Shown: positions 22,831 to 48,705 of the stretch, piece after piece
How positions within the stretch are numbered: position 1 is the stretch's first letter
How the letters are laid out: every line of letters starts with the position of its first letter
Virus record (IMG/VR): IMGVR_UViG_2576861453_000002
DNA length: 64,000 nt
Reading direction: 5' to 3' (one strand)
Origin: a virus
Lineage: Duplodnaviria > Caudoviricetes
The notes under the pieces: model-generated
The model's input: the letters and a program-made list of their open reading frames with translations, nothing else
What the model was told of the DNA's origin: nothing
The model's database searches: none
Position numbers and translations under genes: made by a program

Positions 22831-25800
22831 TTAGGCCCTCAATATTCCTCCATCACGCTGCTGATTTAGCAAGGCACTATTTATCCGACTATCTACCATT
22901 CTCTGAAGTGTCTTTAGAAGGTTGTCGTTGTTTTGCTGTTGTTGATCATTGGTGTTTCCACGCTGATCAACATTAAGTGTAATTGGTGCGTTAAGGGTCA
23001 CCCCTGCACCGCCAACACCTTTAGCCCTCACGCCCAATGAACCATCAGAACTCCGTTTCAAGGGCAAAATAGCCTCCGGTCCTGCTTCACCCATCACTCC
23101 GCCGCCGTTCGCGAAGGCGAAGAACGTCGGCTTGCTAACCACCCTCCCGCTGTATGCGCTCAGGCTGGGAGAGTCGTAAACGCCGCCTTTGGCATTGAGG
23201 CTCAGATTGTTATAAGCACCAGTATTGAAACCAGTACTTGCTGAAGCGCTGCCGCCCGCAGCAGAGGACGCGGCACTACCTACCAAACCGAAGAGGCTTT
23301 GCAATGCCGATGACGAAGCCGAACGGATGGCGATGCGCGCCATATCGTTAAGCACCGATGTGGCAAAGCTGCTAAAGCTCGCCTTACCCGTCGTCACGAA
23401 CGAAACAAGACTATCTTCCATACTACTAAAGGCATTAGTAAAAGCGTCCTTAGTCTGCCCGGCGATATTCTTGGCAGAATCGATGTAATTCTGATATGCA
23501 GCGGTGGCCCCATTCGTCCAATCACCTTGTAGCGCATCCAATTGGGCATAGGAATCGCTTTGCTGTTTTAGACGTGCATCAAGCTGAGATTTGATATTTG
23601 CCGTTTCTTGCTTATAGGCATCAGATTCTAAGAGCGATTTAGGGGTAGCCTTGTCTAGTTGCTCTTGATAGCGCTGAAATTCTTTGTAAATACTGGCAGT
23701 GCTTTCGGTACGTTCAACCTCCTTATCACCTTTGCCATATGCATTGAGCTGACGCTGATATTGCTCTCCAGCTCCGTTATAAGCTGAAGCCATGGACTCG
23801 TTAAGTTGAGCCGATCTCTCTTCCAGCTTCTGCAATGCTTCCCGCTGTTGTATTCGCTGGGCCAATGCCGCATTTTGCTCGTAGGCACCCCGCAAAGCGT
23901 CTTCATTTGCGAGTATGCTTTTCTGCTCTGCGGTTAATATTGACTTGCTTTTCAGATCGGCAATCTGCTGGTTGAATTTAACTAGCGCCTGCTCTGATGT
24001 AGAAAGCTTGTCTGTGGTAGCGAGTTGGGCCTCAAGCGTGGCGTGTTGCTCCTGCAACTGTAATAGCTCGCGAGTAGCAGCACTGTCAGTAACAGCTTTT
24101 TCCTTCGGGGTTTTGGGGTCCTTATATTTGTCACTGATTTGCTGGCGAATCTGATCAGCCGTTACACCATCAGGAAGAATTCCACCGTTCTGAAGGTTTT
24201 TCTCAAATGCATCCAGCTCCTTTTTGCGCTGCTGTGCCTTAGTCATGACGGTGTCATACGTCGAGTTTATGGCCTTCGTAGCTTGTATGGCCTGTTCCTC
24301 AAAGTATTGACGAGTTTGGTTTGTGGCCGCTTTGTTTAGATCACGCTGATTGTCAGCTAACGCACTCTGCAATTCACTTTGTGCGGCGGCAAGCTGTTCC
24401 TTGAATCGCGCCTTTGCATTTCCGACACCAGCAGTTGCCATGCCTCCTTGTGACGTATCAATTGATTCTAATCCGCTTAAGCTAGCTTGTAGATTATTGA
24501 CTTTCGCAGTTGCTTCTTTAACCCGATCTGCAGGTGTTTGAGTCCTGCCGATATCGAGCATTGCATCCCAGGCACCCTTAGCGGCATTTGCTACGGTGTC
24601 CCACGCCGACTCTAAGGCACCCAGATTTTGCTTCACCTCAGCAGCAGCTTTTTGCTGGGCGGAAGCATATGCGCTTACAGCCACCGCAGCGGCTTGTTGT
24701 GTATTTCCCTGACGTTCAAGCGCCGCTATCTGCTCGTAAACAGAAGCGGTCAGGTAATGATATTGGTCGTTTAGGGTTTCTGAAGCGCGAACCGGATCTT
24801 GCTCCAACTTCTTAAAATCAGAGATAGTTTCATCAATGCTTTTACCTGTAGCGTCTTGCATCGCCACAGCCGCCTGCGCCACCATCTTGAGCTGATCGCC
24901 GCTAAAAGCACCGGTATTTAAAGCTGCAGTTAAAGCCTTTGCGGCATTAGCTGTAGTGCCGATATTTGAGCTGATCGATTTAGACATATCAGCGAGTTGG
25001 CTAGCAGAAATGCCGGCATAGTTACCAGTGGTGATGATCGCCTGATTGAAGGCGTCCATTTCACCTTGGCCTTTTTTATAGGCCAGCGCCAGCGCACCTG
25101 CTGTGACTGCAAGCGCCGTGATACCTAACGTTAGGGGATTGATGAAACTTAACAGTGCCTTAGCTGCGTTGCCGACGCCACCAAATGAATCCTTGATTTG
25201 CCCACCCTGCTGTATAGCGACCAGCCACACGGGCATGCCAGAGGCTAAAGAGGTCACCACATCGGTGATTTGCATCGGAAGATAGCGCATTGCCTGAGCG
25301 TACTGTTTGGCGCTGAGGGTTGCAGCTTTGATCGTTCCGTTCTGCTGATTCAATTTCTGAATGTATGGCGCCACTTGGGCAGAAACACCTAGCTGTGCGG
25401 CTTTGTATTCCAGCAATTCGGCCGTGGTCATTCCCATGGTGTCGGATTGCTGTTTAAGGCTTGCGATAAATGATTCTTTTGCTGTTTGTGCCCGCTGATC
25501 CGCTGCGGCCGATTCCCTCGCTGCTTTCGCTGCGGCTTGGCCCTCAGCTGTTGAGGCAAGCGCCGCCTGCTCAAGTTGGGTGCGCATCTGTTCAATCTTA
25601 GCGGAATACTCAGCCAGATCTTCGCCGCCAAGCAGTCCAGAGGCGCCAAAGCCTTTAAGCTGCTTTTCCATCTCATCTAACCGACCATAGGCACCGACAA
25701 CCGGATCGATTTTCCCCAAAAGTGACACTAGAGCAGATTGTTGTTCTGCCAAGCTCGAATTAACGGCCTTGCCTGACTTGGCAGCGGCTATGGCGCTTCT

Positions 25801-26010
25801 ATTCATTTCCTCAGTTTGACGCGTCCATCCTGCCGCCGCAGTTGACGCGCGACGAGCGGCGCTATCAGTTTTGGCAAATTCACTGGCTAACGAGCTGGCA
25901 ACGCCTTCCGCCTTTTCTCCTGCTCCCGTCAGCCTATCCAGTGAATCCGCCGCTTTAGCTACGCCATCTTGCTGAACCTTAATGATTAGGGCGGCTGTTT
26001 CTTGCGGCAT
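22831..26010 (-). CDS. tape measure protein
   Basis: ~1060 aa, Ala/Gln-rich; lambda H-like QQGGQIKDSFGG; MGEAGPEAILPL. Confidence 0.95.
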   Translation of the reverse strand: MPQETAALIIKVQQDGVAKAADSLDRLTGAGEKAEGVASSLASEFAKTDSAARRASTAAAGWTRQTEEMNRSAIAAAKSGKAVNSSLAEQQSALVSLLGKIDPVVGAYGRLDEMEKQLKGFGASGLLGGEDLAEYSAKIEQMRTQLEQAALASTAEGQAAAKAARESAAADQRAQTAKESFIASLKQQSDTMGMTTAELLEYKAAQLGVSAQVAPYIQKLNQQNGTIKAATLSAKQYAQAMRYLPMQITDVVTSLASGMPVWLVAIQQGGQIKDSFGGVGNAAKALLSFINPLTLGITALAVTAGALALAYKKGQGEMDAFNQAIITTGNYAGISASQLADMSKSISSNIGTTANAAKALTAALNTGAFSGDQLKMVAQAAVAMQDATGKSIDETISDFKKLEQDPVRASETLNDQYHYLTASVYEQIAALERQGNTQQAAAVAVSAYASAQQKAAAEVKQNLGALESAWDTVANAAKGAWDAMLDIGRTQTPADRVKEATAKVNNLQASLSGLESIDTSQGGMATAGVGNAKARFKEQLAAAQSELQSALADNQRDLNKAATNQTRQYFEEQAIQATKAINSTYDTVMTKAQQRKKELDAFEKNLQNGGILPDGVTADQIRQQISDKYKDPKTPKEKAVTDSAATRELLQLQEQHATLEAQLATTDKLSTSEQALVKFNQQIADLKSKSILTAEQKSILANEDALRGAYEQNAALAQRIQQREALQKLEERSAQLNESMASAYNGAGEQYQRQLNAYGKGDKEVERTESTASIYKEFQRYQEQLDKATPKSLLESDAYKQETANIKSQLDARLKQQSDSYAQLDALQGDWTNGATAAYQNYIDSAKNIAGQTKDAFTNAFSSMEDSLVSFVTTGKASFSSFATSVLNDMARIAIRSASSSALQSLFGLVGSAASSAAGGSASASTGFNTGAYNNLSLNAKGGVYDSPSLSAYSGRVVSKPTFFAFANGGGVMGEAGPEAILPLKRSSDGSLGVRAKGVGGAGVTLNAPITLNVDQRGNTNDQQQQNNDNLLKTLQRMVDSRINSALLNQQRDGGILRA

Positions 26011-26083
26011 GTGGGGATCTCCAGACAATAAAAAACCCCGCTTCAGCAGGGTTTTAATTAATTATGCTTTTTTAGAACGGGAT

Positions 26084-26440
26084 TTACTTGAGTAAGTTAG
26101 TAATGATGATCGTGGCTGCGGTTTTGATCGAATCTACTGTTAATTCAATTCCCTTTGACTTAACAAGCGCTACTGTTTTGCTCCAAACATTATTCGACCT
26201 GATATTATCCAGAAAATCATGCCCCTCAAATGTTAACCCTGTCGTGTAATATGCAGAAGAAGCTAATGTTGAAACGTCAATAATTTCAAGCAATCCCGCC
26301 TGACCAAGTATCTTGATATGATAGTTAACCAATTCGGATGATACTTCTGGAAAATCCTCGTCTGTAACCACTTCGCTTCTCTCTGAGAGATTTTCCGCTT
26401 TCAACATGATACTTCTGACCAGATCCCAGTCCCTTTTCAT
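26084..26440 (-). CDS. DUF2513-like winged-helix protein (moron)
   Basis: MKRDWDLVRSI…LTFEGHDFLDNIR. Confidence 0.8.
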   Translation of the reverse strand: MKRDWDLVRSIMLKAENLSERSEVVTDEDFPEVSSELVNYHIKILGQAGLLEIIDVSTLASSAYYTTGLTFEGHDFLDNIRSNNVWSKTVALVKSKGIELTVDSIKTAATIIITNLLK

Positions 26441-26494
26441 CGCATCACCCATGAACTAAAATAATTACCATCATAATACTACCAAACGGCATGT

Positions 26495-27237: not shown

Positions 27238-28182
27238 TTAAGAGCCTTGACCGTCTGCGGTGCGGGTGATCTGAAGAAGAATGCCGGTTGCTTTGTCTTC
27301 ATAAGCGGTGAAATCAAAAGTGAGTGCCTGAAAAGCGTCGGCCTCAGCCAATGCTTCTGAGGAAAACTTAATGCGGGGAAGCAGAAAGGTATACGCCCCA
27401 CCCTGCCCGCTTAGCGTAAACTCAAGCGAGATATCGGAATGGTCGTAGAACATCTGCGACAAATCTTCGTTCTGATACAGAAAGGTAATCGACCCTGTAG
27501 TAGCGGCATTAGTTGAACCACTGGCCGCAACGCCGCGTTGCCCGTAAACGTGGGCCTGTGATATGCCATTATCGATGTTCAACGAAACAGACGTAACCGC
27601 ATTAGATGCCACACCATTTACCTTAATGGCCGCCGTCAAGGTTGCATTTTCGCCCGTAGAGTCGAACGGATCATTATTCTCTGGCTCGGCATATGTAGCT
27701 CCCGAGATAGCGGAAGCCCCATAGAGCACGGACGCGCCCATAATGCCGAAATCAGCAGTTACTATGGCATTAGGTGCCGCCGTTAGAGCAAATGTGTTAA
27801 CCAGACATCCTGGGTAGCGGCGTAAAGTATCGATGTCGGTTTGCTTTCGCTCAATCGTAAAAGATTTTTTGGTGGCGCCGATGACCAAAACATCATCGTT
27901 CCACGTGTTAAATAACAAGCTTTGCAACAGATAGTCGAAATCACCATACGCGAATTCGGTATTAAGTGTTCCTGACGAACTTTCGGAGCCACGGGCGGAG
28001 AAGATCGCCTTTCGGTCGCTCCTGACCTGGTTGGAACTCAGTTCATCTCGGGTTAGTGTTAATTCGCCGGGCGTTTTGGGAATGCGGATAAAGGCTGGTG
28101 TTGCCGGCGTATCCCCTTCAATAGTTTCAGGCACCAGCCAGTAATCGACCTGTTTGGCTCCAGCAGCAGCTACCATAACCAT
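27238..28182 (-). CDS. major tail tube protein
   Basis: Lies between terminator and chaperone genes; KSFTIER…YPGC.V motif; ends …DGQGS. Confidence 0.88.
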   Translation of the reverse strand: MVMVAAAGAKQVDYWLVPETIEGDTPATPAFIRIPKTPGELTLTRDELSSNQVRSDRKAIFSARGSESSSGTLNTEFAYGDFDYLLQSLLFNTWNDDVLVIGATKKSFTIERKQTDIDTLRRYPGCLVNTFALTAAPNAIVTADFGIMGASVLYGASAISGATYAEPENNDPFDSTGENATLTAAIKVNGVASNAVTSVSLNIDNGISQAHVYGQRGVAASGSTNAATTGSITFLYQNEDLSQMFYDHSDISLEFTLSGQGGAYTFLLPRIKFSSEALAEADAFQALTFDFTAYEDKATGILLQITRTADGQGS

Positions 28183-28187
28183 AATTT

Positions 28188-28598
28188 TTAGCTCCGTAAT
28201 TCGTATGATGACCAATAAAAAGTCAGATGAGCGACCGCCCAGCCATCAACAGACTGCGGATCGGTGTATTCGCGGTTTTTGATGGTGACGCGAGTGTTGT
28301 TATAGGTGAGCACAGTCCCAATTTTAAACTGTCCCCGTAAAGTGTCGAAAATAGCCAGCATGGCGCCGTTGACACCCGCGCGGACCTTGCAAACGACATC
28401 AATCTGAACAAAGCCGCTGATCGAATCCAGACCACCTTGTCCAAAGGTTGTTGCAGTGTCGCCGGCAGGTGAAAAATAGAATCGAAGATAATCGCCATCT
28501 GGCGGATCAAACGACTCAAGCGGCCACGCCACCGGTACCGACAATGCAGCGGCCGCCGCTACCATGCGCGAGCGCAAAGCGGAGGAAATATCCTTCAC
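28188..28598 (-). CDS. tail terminator protein
   Basis: Synteny; FDPP…YLR…GFVQIDV. Confidence 0.75.
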   Translation of the reverse strand: MKDISSALRSRMVAAAAALSVPVAWPLESFDPPDGDYLRFYFSPAGDTATTFGQGGLDSISGFVQIDVVCKVRAGVNGAMLAIFDTLRGQFKIGTVLTYNNTRVTIKNREYTDPQSVDGWAVAHLTFYWSSYELRS

Positions 28599-28607
28599 GG
28601 GTTAGCC

Positions 28608-29057
28608 TCACTTAACGAGTATCATGGCCTTATTGAGGTTGGTGTTGATGCGGGACATGTTGCGGCGAACCATGCCAGCGGGCGCTTGAGTGGAATAGCC
28701 AGCTACTGTATGAGGCCCGTTTGCCGGATTTCCATTTTTGTCCTTCCATTCGCCATACTCGGCAACTTGGGCATAAGGCAAGTTGTTGGTCATATAGACC
28801 GTGAAATTACGCCCCTGGGCAAGCACGACGGTTGTCATTTTCTCTACCGTCTGAGCGCCGTCTTTGTCGTCTAATGCGAGTTGTCCGAATACAGGCGAAT
28901 CAGCGGAAACCTGCCAGTTGGCCCGGAGTCTGCCCGTATCAACCGGAGTATCAAGGATAATGCCGCGAAATAACGCTATGGCAGCCTCTTTACCGACGTA
29001 CTCAGAGCGCTTAATGGTTTCGCCGGACCATTTACCAATCGATGCGGAGAATCCCAT
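28608..29057 (-). CDS. HK97 gp10-like neck protein
   Basis: TPVDTGRLRANW…NNLPYA…EYG…QAPAGMV. Confidence 0.9.
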   Translation of the reverse strand: MGFSASIGKWSGETIKRSEYVGKEAAIALFRGIILDTPVDTGRLRANWQVSADSPVFGQLALDDKDGAQTVEKMTTVVLAQGRNFTVYMTNNLPYAQVAEYGEWKDKNGNPANGPHTVAGYSTQAPAGMVRRNMSRINTNLNKAMILVK

Positions 29058-29413
29058 TAGCGCCTCACTTGCAGCTGATAGCAGACCGTCACGTCAGCCG
29101 GAGTTTTGTCGCTGATGTTGATGATCCGCCATTTAGTTGTCCCGTCTTGGAGAAAATCACCGATAAGCGGCGTTGTATCGGCAGAGATAGTAACTTTCTT
29201 GTCGCTGGCGAGGATGAATGTGCCGTCAACCTCAACGCGGTTAAAGTCCTGCACTACGCCGATAACAGACAGCATTTGCGGCGGTTGAGTCACTGCATCA
29301 CCGGTCACCGGGTCAATCACAGAAGTGCCGGCGCGTTCGATGTACATCGTTTTACCGTATTTCGTCAGTAACCGTGTTGCGGTAGCCTGCATGCGTGGAT
29401 AAAAGGCCGCCAT
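29057..29413 (-). CDS. head closure protein
   Basis: Synteny; ATRLLTKYG…DGTFILASD. Confidence 0.75.
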   Translation of the reverse strand: MAAFYPRMQATATRLLTKYGKTMYIERAGTSVIDPVTGDAVTQPPQMLSVIGVVQDFNRVEVDGTFILASDKKVTISADTTPLIGDFLQDGTTKWRIINISDKTPADVTVCYQLQVRR

Positions 29414-29414
29414 A

Positions 29415-29897
29415 TCATCCCCTTATCACATCAAAGTTAACGGAAGACCCGGTGCCGACAAGGCCGCGAAGCAGGCCAGAAAGCCACGCAAAGTAAGGAG
29501 CTGATGTGCTGCTACCCTCGGCATAGGAAACGCTGACAACGCCGGTAACGGCCTCCTGTACCACTTCGCCACCACCAGAATAAGAAGGTGTGAGGTCGAT
29601 AGTTTGCGCTTCGACTGCTAAACGGCATTGGGCCTGTATCAATTGGCGCGGGATGGTGGTCAAAGCAACACCGCCGGCATAGACCTTTGTGCGTGGCCAC
29701 TGAAGCGGCTGATTAGCATTAAGGGGAAGCCCCCGCCACGCCATTCCCTCCAGATAATCCATGGCCTGCATAAGCAATTGCTCTTTTACTTCATCCGATG
29801 GTGGGATGCTGTAGCCCCTGGCTGCGGCGAACATGTCAAGGTCAGCAACGCTAGCGTAGCTATTGAAGTCGGGTGATGTCGGATCGGTGTTTATCAT
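29415..29897 (-). CDS. head-tail adaptor (DnaT-like family)
   Basis: NSYASVAD…AMDYLE…QPLQWPR…AQCRLA. Confidence 0.8.
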   Translation of the reverse strand: MINTDPTSPDFNSYASVADLDMFAAARGYSIPPSDEVKEQLLMQAMDYLEGMAWRGLPLNANQPLQWPRTKVYAGGVALTTIPRQLIQAQCRLAVEAQTIDLTPSYSGGGEVVQEAVTGVVSVSYAEGSSTSAPYFAWLSGLLRGLVGTGSSVNFDVIRG

Positions 29898-29911
29898 AAC
29901 GTCCTCGTCGT

Positions 29912-30502
29912 TCAGGCCAATCTCCAGGCTTTACGGCGCTCAAGCCTTGGCTGACCATCCGGGTGTTTTTCGACACTAACCACATCAGCATGGTCGACCA
30001 GTGAATAGCATGGGTAGATAACAGGCCCATCCCATGCATCCCCTATTGCAAAGTCCGCCGCTTTTGTAGAGTTCCAGCGCGATAACACTCGGTTGATATG
30101 CTGTGGTGGTACGCTGTAACAGACACCGTGAATCAGCCGTGGCAGCGTGATGTAGTCAGCCCTTGCTTTGTCAGCGGCTATTAGCCGTTCCGCTATCTGT
30201 ATCTGGTATTGTGGCGGCCGGCCGGTGCCGAGATAGAAAGAACACAAGTAGTCAGGGAAACGCGTCAACCATTCGTTCACAAGCGCCTTAAACCCAGCGA
30301 CAGGAATCGCATCATCTTCACAGATAACAACCCTGCATTCCTGCTCAGCAGCCCACTCAAGCGCACGGCGATGGTTTGCATTGGCGCCGTTGCTGCCCTC
30401 ATCAATCACCAGATGAGCATTAAGTGATGCCGCTAAATCGATAGCCATCGACCTGCGCATATGATGGCCGACCACGGCAAACTTTATTTGTGGGCAAACC
30501 AT
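29912..30502 (-). CDS. glycosyltransferase (GT25-like, GT-A fold)
   Basis: GANANHRRAL…VVICEDDA…SLVDHAD pattern. Confidence 0.75.
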   Translation of the reverse strand: MVCPQIKFAVVGHHMRRSMAIDLAASLNAHLVIDEGSNGANANHRRALEWAAEQECRVVICEDDAIPVAGFKALVNEWLTRFPDYLCSFYLGTGRPPQYQIQIAERLIAADKARADYITLPRLIHGVCYSVPPQHINRVLSRWNSTKAADFAIGDAWDGPVIYPCYSLVDHADVVSVEKHPDGQPRLERRKAWRLA

Positions 30503-31935
30503 GCGAACTCCTTCCCTATGCCGTTCGTTCGGAAAACGGTATGCACCTGGGGTCCAGTGACAACGCGGTCACCGAATGTTTTCGCCACGATGCCAAACGC
30601 CAACATATCGCCGATTGCCCCATCGGGCTGTTCCGTCTTCCAGAAACGCATGCTCTCGATGCGGTAATACAGACGGACGATGCAATGCGCGAACGCCATA
30701 ACGTCATCGCGTGTTCCGCCGAGTAAACCGGCATTGAGCATGGTCTCGTTACGGTGTTGTTCGATGAACTGCTGATAAATCCGTTCTGGATGTTTCTCAC
30801 GCGCCCACGCATCAGCGTGGGTTTTCGGCTCGGAGCCTACATAGATTTTACCCGGCTCCATGTCCTGCCACGGCTCGCAGAGCATCTCAACGTCTGTCCC
30901 GTCCGTGCACCAAACTAAACGGTATTCAGGATGCTCGCGTAGGTATTGATAGATATGCAGCCATCGCCGGAAATAGACGTTCATATCGACCGCCGGAACG
31001 CGAACCAGAGACGCGCCAACTGGCGCCTTCTCCAGCTCATCCACAAGCACTAGGGCATCAGCACCTTTCATCGACGCTGACCATTTCGCCAGCAAAGACG
31101 CATCCGGCTTAATCTTCACATTGCGCTGTGGGTCTGGCTGGCTTGTCAGCAATGTTGTGATTACTGCATTACGCTGACGCCTGTACTCTGCATAACCTGC
31201 ATACCCTTTATCGCGCCGCTCATTGTGTATCGTGACGTTGCGCTTTACCTGTTGTTCCCTGTCCGGGCGCGGCACTGAACGTTCTACGGCCTCATGCTCA
31301 TCCAGCGAATGAATAAGTTTTCCCGATCCCGCTACATCAGCAAATGCCCAGCTTGTTAGCCCTGCATTGTGGATACGTAATGCCAGGTCGCTGTGCTCGT
31401 ACATGCCTCGCCCATATATTGGGTCAAAGCCGCCGAGCTTCTCGATAACCGAGCGGTGATAATAGAGCATTACGCCGCGTTGCCCGGTGTAAGCGACGTG
31501 TTTATCATCCCTGTAAAGCACTGCGATATCCTTTAATTTTCGCGGCCCAGCTAAATCCAGAAACTGATAAGCAAGATGTGGCTCGGGGGATTCAATGTAA
31601 GGCAGGTGCCAGTTATCAGCGATAGGCCAGGCGTCATCGTCCCACAGGAATATATGCTCACAGCCTGCCCCCATAAGCGCTTCAAGGCTTGCGTTTTTGG
31701 AAGCCACAATGCCTAGAGATATCTCATTGCGTATAAGCTTTATACCTTCAGGAGCTTCGGCTTGAGGGTTTGAGCCGTCATCCATGACGACCATCATGGC
31801 ACCTAAAGGGAAATGCTTTTGATGCTGCTCAATTGCTCGCTTGAGAACATCAGGTCTATTGTGCGTGGTTATAGCAATACCGATACTTGCGCTGTTATGT
31901 GGGGAATACAAAACCCCGTCAATCATAACCTTCAT
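30484..31935 (-). CDS. two-domain glycosyltransferase (GT2 plus a second GT-A domain)
   Basis: IAITTHNRP, VMDDGS, FLWDDD, GGFD…YEHSD; second domain WCTDGTDV…LNAGLLGG. Confidence 0.88.
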   Translation of the reverse strand: MKVMIDGVLYSPHNSASIGIAITTHNRPDVLKRAIEQHQKHFPLGAMMVVMDDGSNPQAEAPEGIKLIRNEISLGIVASKNASLEALMGAGCEHIFLWDDDAWPIADNWHLPYIESPEPHLAYQFLDLAGPRKLKDIAVLYRDDKHVAYTGQRGVMLYYHRSVIEKLGGFDPIYGRGMYEHSDLALRIHNAGLTSWAFADVAGSGKLIHSLDEHEAVERSVPRPDREQQVKRNVTIHNERRDKGYAGYAEYRRQRNAVITTLLTSQPDPQRNVKIKPDASLLAKWSASMKGADALVLVDELEKAPVGASLVRVPAVDMNVYFRRWLHIYQYLREHPEYRLVWCTDGTDVEMLCEPWQDMEPGKIYVGSEPKTHADAWAREKHPERIYQQFIEQHRNETMLNAGLLGGTRDDVMAFAHCIVRLYYRIESMRFWKTEQPDGAIGDMLAFGIVAKTFGDRVVTGPQVHTVFRTNGIGKEFAWFAHK

Positions 31936-31949
31936 GCTTCCCTCTCATG

Positions 31950-31971
31950 AAAAAAGGGGCCGAAGCCCCTT
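31950..31971 (-). terminator. intrinsic terminator after the major capsid gene
   Basis: AAGGGGC-TTCG-GCCCCTTTTTT on the minus strand. Confidence 0.8.
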
Positions 31972-31976
31972 GATAG

Positions 31977-32951
31977 TTATGAACCGGAACCACCAGACAA
32001 CACGGCAGCAAAAGGAACCTGCTTACGGTCAAATACTCGCGTCCAGTTAGCAGCATCGGCCATCTGGGTGTATGTCGGCGAAAGGTTCGGATCATCCTCA
32101 CCTACCCAGGAGAACCCTGCCGGCTGGATGATATAGGTTTTGCGCTCCCACAACACTTCTGCACCACCACCATTACCACCATCCGGTTTGCGCTGAAGCT
32201 CAACCGGGGTATGCGGAGTGCCAACGCCATAACCAAATGCGCCAGAGCCGAAGAACACGGAAAGGAACTGACCTGAGTTATATTTCAGGCTGTCATCCAT
32301 GAACACCGGCTTACCCAGATACGTGGCGAGGATGATATTGCCGGTCGAATCGCGAAGGTATTCGATCAGGTCGGCTTTAACCATCTGGTTCATAACAGTC
32401 GAATGCACGCCGATTGCCGAGAACTGATCTGCGGCATCACCCGCAGTGAAGGCGGCATCCTGGAATGACTCGGCCAGCGAAGCGCCAGCGTCAACCACCA
32501 TGTCGCCATCATCGTTAGCGATATTGGACGCAATAATGCCCCGCGCCTCGCCAATCAAATAACGCTGCCATTGGCGGGTCCAGTAAGTGCCAAAGCGATT
32601 GCGGATTTGCGTCATCGGGTCGCTGTTGGCCAATTCAGAGGCCAAATCGGCCACGCCATAGCCTTTATTCAGGTACAACGTGCGGGCGCGCATGCTTCCC
32701 TGGGTTACCTTGCCGACTTCGCCCAGATCGTCCGGGTTATCGTTGGAGGCGTTTGGTGCTTCGTCTGCATCCAGATCCTGCCAGTAGCTGACAGTCGCGG
32801 TGCCTTGGCCGTTTTGTGCGACTGCATCCAATGCCGGCAGGCGTGTGATAATCCCAGAGTTATAGACTGCGGTTTTTTCAGGGCTATTTACCGGAGCTAT
32901 GGTCTGATAATAGTCCGAGACAAAAATGTCAGTAAGACGAGTGGTAGCCAT
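31977..32951 (-). CDS. major capsid protein
   Basis: MATTRLTD…DPMTQIRNRFGTYW…NWTRVFDRKQVP coat family; follows scaffold; ends SGGSGS. Confidence 0.9.
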   Translation of the reverse strand: MATTRLTDIFVSDYYQTIAPVNSPEKTAVYNSGIITRLPALDAVAQNGQGTATVSYWQDLDADEAPNASNDNPDDLGEVGKVTQGSMRARTLYLNKGYGVADLASELANSDPMTQIRNRFGTYWTRQWQRYLIGEARGIIASNIANDDGDMVVDAGASLAESFQDAAFTAGDAADQFSAIGVHSTVMNQMVKADLIEYLRDSTGNIILATYLGKPVFMDDSLKYNSGQFLSVFFGSGAFGYGVGTPHTPVELQRKPDGGNGGGAEVLWERKTYIIQPAGFSWVGEDDPNLSPTYTQMADAANWTRVFDRKQVPFAAVLSGGSGS

Positions 32952-32962
32952 TCGGCAACTCC

Positions 32963-33661
32963 TTAAGTGTTTTGTGTTGCTGCGAGTCGTTTAAACTCGT
33001 CAGGGTTTTCTTTGAATAACTGAAGCCTCTGGGCTTCTGTGTAATCAGTCCATTTTTTGCCGTCGCCGCTGACGAACGTCTGGCTACCGTTACCGCCGGT
33101 CCCGGATGCCTTACTACCGATAACAATTGGTGCAAAAAGCTTGTTGCTACGGAATTCTTTTTCCAAATCTTCGAGCGTTGACGCTGACGGTTTGCCATCC
33201 GCATCTAAAATTCGTGTCTTTCCGTCTTCAACAACCAGACGGGATTTAATGTGTGGGGTGAGTACTGCTGCGCTATCTCCAGCCAGGCGAGTCGCCAAGG
33301 ATTGTGCGACGTTATCGACTAGCAAAGTTTGCAGTTTTCCGTCTCGTTCTTCGATCTGCGCCAGAAGCTCTCTCTCGCGGCTGGAAAGCTTTTCTGCCCA
33401 ACTCTTTTCTAGGGTATCTAAATCCCCTTTTTTTCGGGCCTGCTCTTCTGCCGCCTTTCTCGCTTCTTCTTCAGCCTGCCGACGCTTTTCTTGTTCCGTT
33501 TTTTTCTCGCCCAGCAATTCGTTTACTTTCTTTTCCAGACCAGAGACATCAGGAATGCCATCAACGGCGAGCTGAAACCCTTCGCCGGCTTCCGCGTACA
33601 TGGTTTTTGCAGACTCTTCCAGGTCGTCGAATTCTTCTTTGGTTAATTTGAACTTAAGCAT
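32963..33661 (-). CDS. head scaffolding protein
   Basis: Charged coiled coil with ASGTGG tail; directly upstream of capsid. Confidence 0.8.
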   Translation of the reverse strand: MLKFKLTKEEFDDLEESAKTMYAEAGEGFQLAVDGIPDVSGLEKKVNELLGEKKTEQEKRRQAEEEARKAAEEQARKKGDLDTLEKSWAEKLSSRERELLAQIEERDGKLQTLLVDNVAQSLATRLAGDSAAVLTPHIKSRLVVEDGKTRILDADGKPSASTLEDLEKEFRSNKLFAPIVIGSKASGTGGNGSQTFVSGDGKKWTDYTEAQRLQLFKENPDEFKRLAATQNT

Positions 33662-34203: not shown

Positions 34204-35271
34204 TCAAATTCCAGCGCGTTTAAATGCCTCTGGTGCTATTTTGCGCATCTCTTCCAATGTCATCGGCTCGAAGTTTCTATCTAGCTGCAAAGCTGCAAAT
34301 CTCTCAGCACTAAGTCCACCATCACGCAGCAACTTTCCCCGATTCTTGCCGATAATCATGTCCTGTTGTTTGTCTGGTTGCCTCAATAGCCATTGATAAT
34401 AGGTTTCATCGGAAGAAATATAACCATCAGAAGATGCCCGCGTTTCACCTTCCCTAAGAATGTCATTAAGCGCAGAATCAGCCAGCACCGGGATAATCGT
34501 ACTTCGGCACCGAATGTGAAGAGGCGGTCGCGGACCGACGTTAATCGCAAATTCTCGCCCATCGAGAGAACGGCAAATTGCTGTTGTTCTGTTATCAAGC
34601 GTGGCGACAAATTGGACTTTATCAACCACATCATCGTTAACGTCAAAAAAAGTTTCGCGGGCCACTGTAGCGGTATGTTGGATGGCTGTCCTGGCTATCG
34701 CGTCAGCGTTCTTAACGTACTGCCCGATAATGCCGTCAGCGCCGTTTAATGCCCTAGTGCCGCGCAGTGCAGTAGTCAGTTGTTGAATGGTCTGTCCTTC
34801 GCGCCATGATCTCAATACGGCGTTATTTGCGGCCGTTAAGGTGAGTGTTTCCCAATCTTTAATGAACGGGTCGAGTAATAACTCACCACGCCAGTTCCTT
34901 ATTGAAAGTGGTCGATTGTGGACCTGCCTAATGATTTTGTCAGTGTCGGGAACAATCAGGCCCGGCATGCCAGGAATAGAACTTAGGGAATTGAGTTCGA
35001 GCTGGGCAACGTCGCCGGAAAGTTGATCGCATAGGGCCAAAAGTTGCTTGGAGTATCCATCGACTGGCCCATACATTGCATTAGCCAACAGTTTAGATAT
35101 TTCGTCACGCTGACCCATCGTATTGATAGTGCCATCGTACTCTTGTAAAACGTAGCCAGTAGACGCGCGCAATTCATTGTAGAGCGTCGTCAGTTCCGTT
35201 CCCTGGCTGGCTTTAAGTCGCTCAATCAGGGTCTGGATGAGAACAGAATTATCATGGAGTAACGTTGCCAC
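34204..35271 (-). CDS. head morphogenesis protein (SPP1 gp7/Mu F-like)
   Basis: ATLDNRTTAICRSLDG…PPLHIRCRS. Confidence 0.9.
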   Translation of the reverse strand: MATLLHDNSVLIQTLIERLKASQGTELTTLYNELRASTGYVLQEYDGTINTMGQRDEISKLLANAMYGPVDGYSKQLLALCDQLSGDVAQLELNSLSSIPGMPGLIVPDTDKIIRQVHNRPLSIRNWRGELLLDPFIKDWETLTLTAANNAVLRSWREGQTIQQLTTALRGTRALNGADGIIGQYVKNADAIARTAIQHTATVARETFFDVNDDVVDKVQFVATLDNRTTAICRSLDGREFAINVGPRPPLHIRCRSTIIPVLADSALNDILREGETRASSDGYISSDETYYQWLLRQPDKQQDMIIGKNRGKLLRDGGLSAERFAALQLDRNFEPMTLEEMRKIAPEAFKRAGI

Positions 35272-36661
35272 TGATGTATGCCCCCATTCCTGGCGCAGTT
35301 TCAGCCAATTCCGTCTCTATTTCCTCCGGCGACTTATCAGCCGGGGCCAATCCCACGTTCTGTTGATAGCGTATGAAATCGACTAAACGCATGTTGCCAC
35401 TTTGCACAGCCGCCATTAGTGCGCTTATCCCTTGAGAGTCTAAAAGCGCAATTTCATACTTCTTGCTCAGCTCAACAATCGCTTCACCGCTGCCGGCGAA
35501 CTGAATAGCAAACTGTATGGCCCGGTTTACGGCCTGCTCAACATTCCCAGCGCACAGTGATAGGATGGAATTGTCGGTTTGCGCCTCATCACCTGCCTGT
35601 GTTGCCGTTTTGGTCGAAGTGTTGCGCTCAACTAATTTAGCGCCGAGCATTGCCATCTGTTTTTCACGGCGCTCAGCCAAAGCAATAAGAATATTTCTCT
35701 CTTCAGGCTGGGCAAACTTCATATCACCGCCCTTCGGCAACAAAACGCCCTTTCGAGAACCAACCTTAAACCCATCAGCCAGATATTTATCGGCCCACTG
35801 CTCATCCAGTCCGGTAAGTGCAACCATAGGTTGCCCTACGGTATGCGCCGCTTCGGCAATGTCGGCCTCAGCCTGATAATGCTTAATGTTGACATACGCG
35901 ATATCAGCCAAGGGCGGAGCATCTGGAGTGTGGTCGTTGTTACTTGAGCCAATCCATGACCAGGGCAGTTCTTTCAAATCGATGCCATTGGCGTCTGATA
36001 ATGGTCTCAAATCGCTACCGCTGATGGCCCTGTCTCCTTCGGACCATTTACGAGCGTGGGCGATACCGTTGATTAGCCTTAGCTCAATCCAGTGCCGCTG
36101 CATGGTTAACTGAAATCCGGCCTCATCATTAATCGGTTCTTCAAAATGCAAAACTACCAGCGACGTTTGTCCGTTCGTGACGCGCCAGTTTATGATCTGC
36201 TTCGCGGTGAACAGGCGCAGAACCGGACGGCCTTTCGTCGCTTGGGTTTGGGTTCCTGTACCCGTGAAATCAGTCAGGATACCGCCGCGACCACGCTGCA
36301 AATTTTGGCTCAGTGCATCTCGGATAAGTTGCGAAAGGGGTTGGCCCTCCCCGTCTGCGTCAGATGCAATATCTTCGATCCCGCCTGACAGTTCGATTTT
36401 CGGCGGCTTATTGAAAGCTATCCCCAGTAACCCGGAGAGTGTGCGCCCGGTGGCGTTGATGAATGCGGCGCGCTTAAGGTAGGAGCTATATCGGATGCCT
36501 TGCGGATCATCGTTAGCGCTGTCGTCACTCGGATGCGGAAGGTATTTTCCCTTTTTCTTCTTAATCTTTCGCTCACCATCAACGCAGTCGCCAATCATTT
36601 CCCATTCGGGCAAGAACTCAGCATATGCAGGGTGACGGTAATCAATGTCTAAATCTGCCAT
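35252..36661 (-). CDS. portal protein (DUF4055-like)
   Basis: Follows terL; YLKRA.F.N.TGRT, IINW, N..HYQ..AD. Confidence 0.85.
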   Translation of the reverse strand: MADLDIDYRHPAYAEFLPEWEMIGDCVDGERKIKKKKGKYLPHPSDDSANDDPQGIRYSSYLKRAAFINATGRTLSGLLGIAFNKPPKIELSGGIEDIASDADGEGQPLSQLIRDALSQNLQRGRGGILTDFTGTGTQTQATKGRPVLRLFTAKQIINWRVTNGQTSLVVLHFEEPINDEAGFQLTMQRHWIELRLINGIAHARKWSEGDRAISGSDLRPLSDANGIDLKELPWSWIGSSNNDHTPDAPPLADIAYVNIKHYQAEADIAEAAHTVGQPMVALTGLDEQWADKYLADGFKVGSRKGVLLPKGGDMKFAQPEERNILIALAERREKQMAMLGAKLVERNTSTKTATQAGDEAQTDNSILSLCAGNVEQAVNRAIQFAIQFAGSGEAIVELSKKYEIALLDSQGISALMAAVQSGNMRLVDFIRYQQNVGLAPADKSPEEIETELAETAPGMGAYISGNVTP

Positions 36662-36662
36662 T

Positions 36663-38144
36663 TTATGCCCACTTGAAGTTAAGAGATTTGACGGGTTTTT
36701 TCTTGCTCTTTGCTACGCCGAAGTAACGAAATCCATCAGCACCGTGCGAAGTGAAATCATGGAGTGGCTTGTCTTTCCAACAACCGCGTTTGTCATCCCA
36801 CTCTTTGCGATAGCCTTCAAGATGGGAAATCCCTAACTCGCATTTTGACTCATCGAATACGCATTTCGGTAAAATCTCGCGTACGGTCTCAATCCCTTCA
36901 TCAATGCCTATTTTCGGCACAACCTGAAAATTAATTCGGTACGTTTCGCCGTCTATTTCATAACCTTCATACGCGAGCTGCTTCCGTGTCTTGCCATCGC
37001 CCGCGAATTCCCGGTTTTCGATATCGTGCGGCGCCCAATGCTCACCGTATTCATAACCACGGTCTTTTAATACCTTTAAGTAGTGGCGCAGCCCTTCGCC
37101 GCTGTTTTCGTAATAGTCGATGACGTGAAACTCTTCCCCGACCTCGCGAACAAACCAGATAGCGGTTGAGTCGCCCACGCCGATATCCCAGAAGGTGTGA
37201 ACCGGTAAATGCGAGTTTTCCGGTATTGCCCCGATGCGCTTATTTTCGTAGAGCCAACGGAACTGTTTAGCGTAATACGCGCCTTCTACGGATTGCTGGA
37301 ACGCTTCGGCGGGTATTGATGGGTACTCGCGCTTCATGTCATCGCCAAGGGTCTTCTCCTTAGCGTAATACCAGGCGCGCTGGCGTTCATCTGTCACAAC
37401 GCCGTGCTTTGCTTCAATCTCTGCGAAATAATCAATCAGTCGCTGTGGAAGCGGCTCTACGGGCTCGATTGCGTACTGCGGATTCTTCCACCATGAGAAG
37501 AAAAAGAACTTCCAGTCGAGGTTGGATAGAACCTTGCCAAGCATCTGCGCCTTTTCAGCAGTCTGACAGTAATCGAAGAAGTAACCAGCGCGACCCTCAG
37601 CTGTACTCTCGATAGTGGTAAAGCATTCGCTGGATACAGCTTCAAACGCGCCGGTGACTATCTCGCGGGCCTTATCTGGGAACTTTGCGCATATCTTGCC
37701 GAACTCTGACACGTGCAGGTAACGCAGGGTGCCGCCACGGAATGACGTGCTGACGTAGAGCGAGCCGCCCTTTTTGAACACCAGCTCACCGGCAGCATCA
37801 TTGCTGGCCGGATTGGCCGCCTTAATCTCATCAGGGAGATTGTCATAGGCATACTTGACCTTTTCACGAAACAGTCGCTTGGCATCATTCAACGTGTGGG
37901 CAATGAGCGCACACTTAGCTGCCTCAAACAGCGCCGCGTCAAGCTGGATAATGCAAACCTCAGTCGTGAAGCCAAGCTGACGAGCCTTCAAGATAATGTT
38001 GCGGGTGTGCATGCCCTTGAAGTAATCAAGCTGTTCCGGGGTCATTGTAAACCGGACAGGCTTACCTTCTTTATCAGTAATCCAGTAAAGGTGATTTAGC
38101 CGCCATAACTTGTCCCGCAAATGATTGAGGTGCTCAGGTTTCAT
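36663..38144 (-). CDS. terminase large subunit
   Basis: ILKARQLGFTT Walker A, LHVSE Walker B, WDIG nuclease, HGADGFRY. Confidence 0.95.
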   Translation of the reverse strand: MKPEHLNHLRDKLWRLNHLYWITDKEGKPVRFTMTPEQLDYFKGMHTRNIILKARQLGFTTEVCIIQLDAALFEAAKCALIAHTLNDAKRLFREKVKYAYDNLPDEIKAANPASNDAAGELVFKKGGSLYVSTSFRGGTLRYLHVSEFGKICAKFPDKAREIVTGAFEAVSSECFTTIESTAEGRAGYFFDYCQTAEKAQMLGKVLSNLDWKFFFFSWWKNPQYAIEPVEPLPQRLIDYFAEIEAKHGVVTDERQRAWYYAKEKTLGDDMKREYPSIPAEAFQQSVEGAYYAKQFRWLYENKRIGAIPENSHLPVHTFWDIGVGDSTAIWFVREVGEEFHVIDYYENSGEGLRHYLKVLKDRGYEYGEHWAPHDIENREFAGDGKTRKQLAYEGYEIDGETYRINFQVVPKIGIDEGIETVREILPKCVFDESKCELGISHLEGYRKEWDDKRGCWKDKPLHDFTSHGADGFRYFGVAKSKKKPVKSLNFKWA

Positions 38145-38662
38145 TAAGCCCCCTGAGACAATGAATCCATCAGGTCAGATAATGAATTGACAGTATGATC
38201 AGCTTTAATTTGCTCGCGGAACGCCTGAACGTTAACGTGCTTGCCGAGCAACTCAAGGTTCTTCACTTTGTCAGGCCATTTGATTTTCTTGAGTAATGCC
38301 GTGCCCTCTTCTTCCCCAGAAGCTATGACGGTTACATCTAACCCGCAAAGGGTAATGCGCCAGCACTTAGGCCAATCCTTTACAGGCTTCAATTCGCCCG
38401 ATTCGGTCAGAATGTCGAGCACGTCCATTTGGTCAATTTCAACCAGTCTTTTAAGGACATAAGCCGCATCTATGCCGATCTCCTCATTGCGTTCCGCTTT
38501 GAGTTGCGCGATTCTGTTCTGAATGTCAAGTTTTGACAATAATTGAGCGGCAATGCGGTTAGCGGTCTTCTCGCTGTACCCCGCCCGAATGGCCGCTTGT
38601 GTGGCGTTCAAATCGATGAGGTACTCGCGACAGAACATTTCCTGTTTGTCGGTGAGTGCCAT
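38144..38662 (-). CDS. terminase small subunit
   Basis: LTDKQEMFCREYLIDLNATQAAIRAGYS. Confidence 0.95.
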   Translation of the reverse strand: MALTDKQEMFCREYLIDLNATQAAIRAGYSEKTANRIAAQLLSKLDIQNRIAQLKAERNEEIGIDAAYVLKRLVEIDQMDVLDILTESGELKPVKDWPKCWRITLCGLDVTVIASGEEEGTALLKKIKWPDKVKNLELLGKHVNVQAFREQIKADHTVNSLSDLMDSLSQGA

Positions 38663-38825
38663 TTTAGAATTTCCTGCTGTGAAATGAAGGTGCGCCACCG
38701 AGGGGTATCAGGCTGCATGCTGCGATATCGATATTTTGAAGTGATTGATCCCAATTCAGCCACCAGGCGCACGCGTTAATGCGCCTTGTGAATAAGAGCC
38801 GTTGTGAAAGAGGCTCTCTTGCCCA

Positions 38826-47608: not shown

Positions 47609-48705
47609 CTAGCCATCTTTAACGGATATGCCTTCCGACTTAACAGCGTTTTCGCAGCGCTCCAGACAGTCATTCCAAATATCACTTTGTAGTGTTCCTG
47701 CGCATTCATAATTCGGAAATTCAAACACCAGCGCCGCACGGCTGGCCTGCCATGCCGCTTGCCAGGCTTCCCATTGATTTTGAGCTGTAAGGAAGAGATA
47801 TTTATTCCCTCTTTTCTCAACCGCTCGTGGGTACTGACCTTTGTCTGATGCCCAATATTCAAACCGCTGGCGCTCAATTTCATCTTTGTCGCTCATTCTT
47901 CCTCTCCCCGCTTCATCGCTTGCGCGGCACAAACAAAAAGGGCCGCTATTACAAGCAGCCCCACGATTAACTCTGTTAGATATGTGATCATCGCTCCTCC
48001 TTGCGATATATCAGGATTATCAAATCGCCTTTTTCCGCGAAACGTAAATATCCGCCCTCTGTTATCTTGTCCAACTCAAAGGCTTCATAAAACTCGTCCA
48101 CAGCTTTCTGACGGCGCGACGATTTCCGGCGCTTGCTCCATTGCCTGAGAAATATGCCCGTGAGCCACCCTCCGGCTCGGACAGTGATATACAGATATCC
48201 GACAATCATCAGGCCAATCGTCATCCATTCGCTAACGCTGATTTCTTTCATGATCCATCCTTCACTTTCAGGCCTGCGGCGCGAATGACTTTGCCGGCAG
48301 CGTTGATTCCAGCGTTATACCCCTCATCCCACTCTGTATCATTTTCTCCATTGCCAAGCAGATATCCGGTATCAATTTCAATAGCGGCGCGGGATGCCTG
48401 CCATGCTATCCAAAGAGCTTCGGTTACATCATGGTCAGGAGCATCCTTCACACTCCAGCCAGTCTCATCCCTGTACCATTCCTCAAAAACAATCCGGCTG
48501 TTCTTCATCCTTCCCCCTGTGTCTCGATAATGTCCTGCAAAATGTCGTGTGCCTCAGCAACCCTTTCGGCAATGACATCACGCATCATCCTGCCGTTCTC
48601 GTTCTCGACGGGGATAAGCTCAAGATTGTCAGCCATGCCGGCCAGTAAATCCCGAGCTTCTTCAATCGGGCCCGTCGGCTTGTGAAGTAGAATTACGTCA
48701 CCCAT
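47609..48705 (-). other. cluster of small nin-region hypothetical ORFs (47609-47896, 47988-48251, 48248-48508, 48505-48705)
   Basis: Translationally coupled small ORFs; two share WQASRAA. Confidence 0.6.

Follow-up and report, generated by a model that had tools for sequence, protein, structure and literature searches.

The 64,000-nucleotide stretch of phage DNA analysed here (IMG/VR record IMGVR_UViG_2576861453_000002; hereafter, the window) carries two overlapping glycosyltransferase (GT) genes between the major capsid gene and the head–tail adaptor gene, and its capsid and tail tube proteins both end in Gly-Ser. We propose that the GT pair, which lies in the late structural operon, forms a phage-borne cytoplasmic protein O-glycosylation system that would decorate the virion; the probability of this reading was put at roughly 0.78. 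Virion O-glycosylation of the kind known from mycobacteriophages is, we infer, the most economical explanation of the data, and phages of enteric bacteria probably coat their particles with sugars too.

Two glycosyltransferases beside Ser-ended virion proteins

The large GT gene (30484–31935, minus strand, 483 amino acids), the product of which is the proposed glycan extender, overlaps by 19 nucleotides the small GT gene (29912–30502, minus strand, 196 amino acids), which would encode the initiating protein O-glycosyltransferase. The pair is separated by 41 nucleotides from the major capsid gene (31977–32951, minus strand, 324 amino acids; phrog_247, major head protein, E = 1.4e-99; Pfam PF20036, Gp13-like), which encodes the first proposed substrate, and by 14 nucleotides from the gene for the head–tail adaptor Ad1 (29415–29897, minus strand; phrog_477, E = 3.3e-51), which is the downstream boundary of the GT insertion. 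The head–tail operon is otherwise of ordinary gene order, and its minus-strand orientation and tight spacing bore out the positions, overlap and late-operon setting that the initial annotation had given for the GT genes. No membrane segment is apparent in either GT, again as annotated, because the highest 19-residue Kyte–Doolittle mean was only about 1.0 in both.

The small GT was assigned to phrog_854 (glucosyltransferase, E = 9.7e-68). By BLASTP it shares 34% identity over 195 amino acids with gp110 of mycobacteriophage Che8 (E = 7e-24) and 33% with gp103 of the cluster F phage Rita, the latter two proteins being 85% identical to one another. By tblastn, matches were found in 720 phage records; Mycobacterium phages account for 661 of these, and cluster O phages are among them, as is Che8 through its gene 110. 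The likeness to cluster F enzymes that the initial annotation had put forward thus held for the small GT through Che8 gene 110, as it did for the large GT through Rita gp101 and StAnnes gp106 (below). Clustered at 90% identity, its relatives in the protein collection fell into 1739 groups, and at 50% into 500. In an alignment of 80 rows, representatives at 50% identity, the second Asp of the EDD motif (D64) was invariant and the first (D63) nearly so.

An AlphaFold (AF2) model of the small GT had a mean predicted local distance difference test (pLDDT) score of 95.7 and a GT-A fold. Its top structural match was Mimivirus R655 (E = 1e-6, template modelling (TM) score 0.61), likewise a virus-encoded GT-A enzyme, though one of about 13% identity and from a eukaryotic virus; giant-virus virion glycosylation enzymes (Mimivirus R655 and R699) are a comparison class for the small GT. 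The nearest solved structures were R655, POMGnT1, the glycosyltransferase domain of LH3, GnT-I, polypeptide GalNAc transferases and COLGALT1. COLGALT1, a member of GT25, appeared at ranks 23 and 36. The description of the small GT as GT25-like could not be maintained: no Pfam family matched even at E values up to 10, no sequence-profile match to GT25 was obtained, and what remains is a GT-A fold, shared with many enzymes, with a conserved EDD. One relative of 649 amino acids (P0177) carries a small-GT-like domain at residues 447–641, behind other GT-like sequence with a VFVDDDD motif as in Che8 gp108; on comparison, this protein with its C-terminal small-GT domain was ruled out as a fusion with the large GT. 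Among complete Escherichia coli genomes, 9 of 5426 matched the GT pair at the DNA level by blastn, so the pair is either rare there or too diverged for this search.

For the large GT, the Pfam GT2 domain (PF00535) was recognised at residues 20–107 (27.6 bits against a cut-off of 23.3), and membership of phrog_1579 extended over the whole length (E = 1.6e-231). Full-length matches were obtained to Rita gp101 (45% identity over 485 amino acids, E = 2e-139) and to gp106 of StAnnes, also of cluster F. In a tblastn search, 605 of 50,697 phage records contained the large GT, 571 of which are Mycobacterium or Mycolicibacterium phages with full-length matches of about 45% identity. A further 17 records, from 12 enterobacterial phages, matched at 71–76%, and a group of approximately 300-kb Klebsiella phages at 53–55%. 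Across 17 sequences the motifs DDGS, DDD (D99–D101) and D345/D348 were invariant, which places acidic motifs in both halves of the protein. Pfam gave nothing for residues 250–483 even at E values up to 10, and a sequence search of solved structures gave no useful match and none to the large GT.

The model of the large GT was poor (pLDDT 62.7, from 17 near-identical rows). Its best Foldseek matches were the two-domain polymerases PmHS2 (Pasteurella heparosan synthase) and K4CP (E. coli K4 chondroitin polymerase), with more than 400 aligned columns; like the large GT these have two domains and two acidic motifs, but the TM-scores on this model were about 0.25 and there was no sequence-level match. 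The second DxxD GT-A domain of the initial annotation, for which the evidence is this model and the invariant D345/D348, is probable, although not confirmed as worded; that the large GT is a polymerising enzyme is pure conjecture. An origin of the large GT as a fusion of Che8 gp108 and gp109 was considered and dropped, there being no significant similarity to either.

The capsid protein of the window ends ...AAVLSGGSGS (codons for SGGSGS at 31980–31997, minus strand) and the tail tube protein ...RTADGQGS (codons for ADGQGS at 27241–27258, minus strand), as the initial annotation had read them; both tails are proposed acceptors, that of the capsid through its terminal Ser. The tube protein, the second proposed substrate, is encoded at 27238–28215 (minus strand; Pfam PF18906, Phage_tube_2, E = 3.8e-45), the mechanical start of this open reading frame (ORF) probably being too far upstream. 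The window has 237 mechanical ORFs of at least 60 amino acids, and a GS end occurs in only three of them, namely those of the capsid and the tube and one of 86 amino acids. With a background in GT-free related loci of 19 GS ends among 4009 ORFs (0.47%), the chance that both capsid and tube end in GS is about 2e-5. The 86-amino-acid ORF (48248–48508, minus strand, phrog_343), unassigned in function, ends ...KVKDGS and may be a further substrate or a chance occurrence.

In Che8, the capsid protein gp6 ends ...KTGS and the tube protein gp11 ...SDGS, with none of 10 other left-arm proteins ending in GS; the Rita capsid and tube have the same tails. The capsid protein of Corndog (gp41) ends ...LVGS and the candidate tube protein (gp49), assigned from its position ahead of the chaperone genes, ...KGDS. 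Freeman et al. 2023 reportedly found the glycans to be O-linked at the C termini of virion proteins, with little evidence for virion glycosylation beyond actinobacteriophages or in the broader phage population. According to papers that cite this study, virion proteins of Che8, Corndog and Myrna are glycosylated, with capsid and tail tube modified by phage GTs (PMC12363180; PMC11600133; PMC13445384), and the two GTs named as indispensable for glycosylating the capsid are Che8 gp110 and Corndog gp38 (PMC12363180). Glycans are also described on the capsid proteins of Che8 and Rita in a further report, which for Rita cites a genome announcement and a poster (PMC11256854). The capsid and tube tails of the window thus match those of the tested mycobacteriophages.

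Co-occurrence of the pair and the tails, and the surrounding operon

A scan in which each prokaryote species was represented by a single genome gave 63 loci with relatives of the window capsid, and a locus was counted as GT-free when no GT lay within 10 kb of the capsid gene. The GT pair directly followed the capsid gene in five loci (Sodalis, Rahnella, Leminorella, Superficieibacter and Erwinia). A GS end was present on the capsid in 5/5 of these loci, as against 0/58 of those without the pair. The GT-bearing relatives end [A/S]GS (SGGAGS, SAGAGS, SPASGS, SGGAGS and SPGAGS), whereas the 58 GT-free relatives end mostly SGT[A/T/V]TP, with two ending in Ser and none in GS. One Pantoea locus (L017, capsid ...GASS) was counted as GT-free, since its 11-kb contig has no GT and the pair in that genome belongs to another prophage. 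In four other sampled GT-free genomes, a small-GT homologue was absent genome-wide.

Tubes followed the same pattern: GS ends were found in four of five GT-bearing loci (the fifth ends ...EPSS) compared with one of 51 GT-free tubes, these being from 50 genome loci and phage Aurca01, with eight loci giving no tube match. The Sodalis relative that carries the GT pair has a tube ending APVVQGS, and five GT-free relatives of the window tube type end DPAP, RIAA, IIAP, RSVA and PDGK. Two unrelated tube families, PF18906 and phrog_584, are used by the GT-bearing loci of this capsid family. Fisher p values, with the window included, were 1e-8 for capsids and 8e-6 for tubes, and are descriptive only because the rows are related. 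The co-occurrence that the initial annotation had put forward for examination was therefore found in this family, and it recurs in unrelated ones, as set out below.

A tree of the capsid relatives was built by a quick method after removal of the last 10 residues. All GT-bearing rows fell within one enterobacterial clade of 16, inside which the GT state changes at least two times, and the GT-free branches of the same clade (Rouxiella, Xenorhabdus/Providencia) carry other tails. The Rahnella prophage has, between its capsid gene and large GT gene, an ORF of 143 amino acids with a hydrophobic, signal-peptide-like N terminus (L005:11325-11756).

In HK97-like coliphages, the GT pair lies after the lysis genes and before the HNH endonuclease and terminase genes. 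All six GT-bearing phages (mEp390, HK542, ECP1, ENT39118, AsXd-1 and SaltyDalty) have a capsid ending ...SSGS and a short tube of 147–157 amino acids ending ...GS. By comparison, the GT-free HK446, HK106 and mEpX1 have a capsid ending ...FSAD and a 234-amino-acid tube with an immunoglobulin (Ig) domain, known from annotation in relatives, that ends ...TLTIS. Whole-record profile searches found a GT in none of five GT-free records and in all five positive controls. The HK97-like phages thus have two tube forms, the short GS-ended one in GT-bearing phages and the one with a C-terminal extension in GT-free phages; the glycan tail and the Ig-like domain may be alternative decorations of the tube. 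The order large GT, small GT, HNH endonuclease, then genome end or terminase is common to Rita and to HK542, ECP1 and mEp390. The two GT genes of mEp390 are separated by a second HNH gene, and several IMG/VR loci have 0.4–1.3 kb inserted at this point.

A third arrangement was found in a lineage with a protease–capsid fusion (phrog_617), where the GT pair lies upstream of the terminase gene. Among 80 relatives of this fusion capsid, GTs were present in all 72 that could be assessed. The capsids of these 72 end in GS (44), TS (27) or DF (1), giving a terminal Ser in 71, and the tails ahead of it vary (SSSQGS, GAGAGS, GTTQTS and others). For phage FSL SP-016, a 347-amino-acid protein initially taken as the capsid was rejected when a related prophage showed an upstream protease–capsid fusion to be the real capsid, and this row was left out of the capsid counts. 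In ENT47670, the pair follows the tube gene; its capsid ends ...EATS and its tube ...EPSS, and it has gtrABC genes as well, at a separate place next to the integrase gene.

An IMG/VR scan, queried with a single small GT protein and so reaching only close relatives, placed the small GT on 17 contigs, with a GS end in 13/13 complete capsid genes and in 12 of 13 tubes (the other ending AS). Nine sampled GS-ending ORFs were assigned by PHROG as four major head proteins (phrog_617, phrog_10), three major tail proteins (phrog_158), one adaptor and one of unknown class. Taken over all lineages, a Ser-ended tail together with the GT pair was found in at least five capsid families (phrog_247, the HK97 type, a 403-amino-acid phrog_10 type, the phrog_617 fusion and the ENT47670 type) and in several tube families (PF18906, phrog_584 and phrog_158 subtypes), the last two residues being [G/T/S]-Ser in nearly every case. 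The pair occupies four different genome positions, as a mobile two-gene unit.

Some loci depart from these layouts. On one GT-bearing viral contig, the head–tail adaptor ends ...EEEEGS (L083:16355-16714), beside a capsid ending ...AESGS and a tube ending ...NTPGS. Another GT-bearing contig (L096:11117-14200) lacks portal and capsid genes, passing from a small terminase gene and a 235-amino-acid fragment directly to the genes for connector and tube, and may be a deleted or satellite-like element. The approximately 300-kb Klebsiella myophages, such as vB_KpM_FBKp24 (L080:6001-8070), have a lone GT pair on the opposite strand to its neighbours. The capsid of vB_KpM_FBKp24 has a long flexible C-terminal loop at the hexamer centre, and capsid glycosylation is unmentioned in the available part of that report (PMC9700779).

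In the window, the genes upstream of the capsid gene encode, all on the minus strand, the small terminase (38144–38698), large terminase (36663–38144), portal (35252–36661), head-morphogenesis protein (34204–35271) and scaffold (32963–33661). Downstream of the adaptor gene, and on the same strand, lie the genes for head closure (29057–29413), neck (28608–29057) and tail terminator (28188–28598), then the tube gene and those for the tail chaperones and, last, the tape measure (22831–26028). An ORF of 122 amino acids (26084–26452, minus strand) separates the chaperone genes from that of the tape measure. The initial annotation had written of lambdoid phages; the head module is Jersey/SPP1-gp13-like and not lambda-like. 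Searched by megablast, the 5.7-kb region matched nothing in the phage collection, so that all links described here are at the protein level.

Within the 41-nucleotide gap between the capsid and large GT genes, a consensus scan predicted a terminator-like hairpin with a 7-bp stem and a TTCG loop, followed by a T run (31954–31971, minus strand). The terminator motif noted in the initial annotation is therefore real, and the suggestion that it keeps the GTs at a low dosage is conjectural: similar terminators are annotated after the capsid genes of GT-free HK97-like phages, so the element says little about GT dosage. Promoter-like sites were not enriched in the region (5, against 6.4 in shuffles).

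Counterevidence and alternative explanations

Several observations weigh against virion glycosylation by the GT pair. Tails as common without the GTs as with them had been named in the initial annotation as an argument against its proposal, and such uncoupling was found in part, in one lineage. HK97 has no GT, yet its capsid ends ...SSGS, and a GS tail alone therefore does not imply glycosylation; mEp506, also without GTs, keeps both GS tails. Elsewhere, the tube of one GT-free Pseudomonas prophage ends ...GGGS in a genome without a GT homologue. The motif is also loose, given the tube of the GT-bearing Rahnella locus (...EPSS), the capsid and tube of ENT47670 (...EATS and ...EPSS) and the many fusion capsids ending ...TS. 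The number of independent events is overstated, as many loci are close relatives and some IMG/VR contigs were counted twice. Neither Che8 gp108 nor gp109 resembles the large GT in sequence, and the function of the large GT is backed only through Rita, the glycosylation of which is reported second-hand. Finally, the window phage and its enterobacterial relatives are known here from sequence alone. With respect to mEp506, a nine-codon stretch similar to the 3' end of the small GT gene (8/9 identical, E = 0.65) abuts its HNH gene (L077:6423-6449); this apparent remnant, weak as it is, hints at a recent loss of the pair.

The alternatives considered fail to explain the convergent tails together with the late-operon position. 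The best placed of them, although improbable, is that the GTs act on another protein, such as a host takeover factor, an adaptor or a fibre, with capsid and tube not the main substrates. The adaptor ending ...EEEEGS in one GT-bearing contig and the 86-amino-acid window ORF ending ...KDGS fit this proposal, and because of them further or different targets are conceivable. Against it, only capsid and tube carry the tail consistently across lineages, and the homologous mycobacteriophage enzymes act on capsid and tube according to published reports (PMC12363180; PMC11600133).

Quite improbable, too, is lysogenic conversion, whereby the pair would be cargo that alters a host surface glycan (O-antigen, capsule or some other glycan of the envelope) and blocks superinfection, the GS tails being unrelated. 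GTs that act on the O-antigen are common on phages, the textbook case being GtrABC, which are membrane proteins encoded beside the integrase gene and acting on lipid-linked sugars. GtrABC modules resemble the window pair as phage-borne GTs of the same kinds of prophage. PHROG classes both GT families as 'moron, auxiliary metabolic gene and host takeover', and prophage GTs are treated as cell-surface modification cargo in one study (PMC11332146). The window pair is unlike GtrABC, however, in being soluble, with no hydrophobic segment by the Kyte–Doolittle profiles given above, and in lying on the late strand inside the head–tail operon rather than by an integrase gene, with no flippase or membrane GT adjoining. 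ENT47670 has both systems, gtrABC by the integrase gene in addition to the GT pair by the tube gene, and lysogenic conversion leaves the co-variation of capsid and tube tails with the pair unexplained.

It could also be argued that the tails and the GTs hitch-hike together in a few mosaic modules and that the GTs are inactive or irrelevant here. Such an account draws on the close relatedness of many loci, on the tails of HK97 and mEp506 without GTs and on the one GS-ended GT-free tube. It is very unlikely when set against the Ser-ended tails that accompany the pair in five or more families of capsid and in several of tube, the four genome positions of the pair, the invariant or nearly invariant catalytic acidic motifs, and the fusion capsids, in which tail sequence varies yet the terminal Ser is kept in 71/72. 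Least credible of all is glycosylation of a hypermodified base in the phage DNA as an escape from restriction: although phage GTs acting on hydroxymethylated bases are well known, and a preprint deals with such enzymes, the annotations of the GT-bearing coliphages HK542 and ECP1 show no hydroxymethylase or dioxygenase gene (ECP1 has only an ordinary DNA methyltransferase listed), the structures nearest to the small GT model are mostly protein- or glycan-modifying enzymes, and no reason for the tail co-variation is provided.

Proposed mechanism and implications

The virion glycosylation proposed for the window is best compared with the mycobacteriophage systems. Che8 (genes 108–110) shares with the window the homologue of the small GT (gp110), the -GS ends on capsid and tube, and phage-encoded soluble GTs. 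It differs in that gp108 and gp109 have no window counterpart and the GT genes are at the right end of the genome, not in the capsid–adaptor gap; the window phage, moreover, has a Gram-negative enterobacterial host and is a case known from sequence alone. Rita and StAnnes have the same two-gene set in the order large then small GT, although in Rita a 70-amino-acid ORF separates the GT genes and the capsid and tube belong to different families. In Corndog (gp35–38), as in the window, the GT genes are embedded among the head genes, there on the upstream side of the capsid gene; small GTs of cluster O phages match that of the window, and the Corndog capsid ends in -GS. Unlike the window, Corndog has three separate GTs and an O-methyltransferase in place of a two-domain GT, and the tube candidate ends -GDS.

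In the mechanism that we propose, the small gp110-like GT-A enzyme would add the first sugar to the C-terminal Ser-ended tail of the capsid and tube subunits, an acceptor that would usually read ...G-S-COOH and sometimes T-S or S-S. The large two-domain GT would then extend this sugar into a short glycan, so that all subunits of capsid and tube, the most abundant proteins of the virion surface, would bear a glycan on a flexible tail. A gp110-like protein is the only GT common to Che8, Rita, Corndog and the enterobacterial phages. The small GT probably recognises the Ser-ended C terminus and initiates the glycan; extension by the large GT is likewise probable in this proposed division of labour. 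As no sugar-synthesis gene lies beside the GT pair, the sugar donors would be host nucleotide sugars. The benefit to the phage may lie in evasion of immunity or of host defences.

A broader reading, held tentatively and as a whole somewhat short of likely, is that the gp110-like GT and a terminal [G/S/T]-Ser-COOH tail constitute a portable, minimal C-terminal 'sequon' system. Such a system would have moved between phages of Actinobacteria and Proteobacteria, and five or more families of capsid and several of tube would have taken it up independently of one another; gaining the tail would be enough for any surface protein to be glycosylated in the bacterial cytoplasm, and in HK97-like phages the glycan tail would be an alternative to the Ig-like decoration domain of the tube.

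In the literature examined, for which coverage was partial, phage virion glycosylation is described only from mycobacteriophages. Nothing was found in it on virion glycosylation in enterobacterial or other Gram-negative phages, including among the papers citing the founding study, at the level of titles and abstracts. GT genes of these families are routinely annotated as host-surface 'morons', both in PHROG and in PMC11332146. The proposal is testable soon in isolated K-12 coliphages (HK542, mEp390 and ECP1), for which HK97, HK446 and mEp506 are natural GT-free comparators, and it may yield a simple cytoplasmic C-terminal glycosylation tag. If it is true, the same enzyme cassette and acceptor tail would occur widely among the prophages of Enterobacter, Klebsiella, Cronobacter, Salmonella, E. 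coli and their relatives, and would bear on how antibodies and gut mucus see phage particles, and on phage pharmacokinetics.

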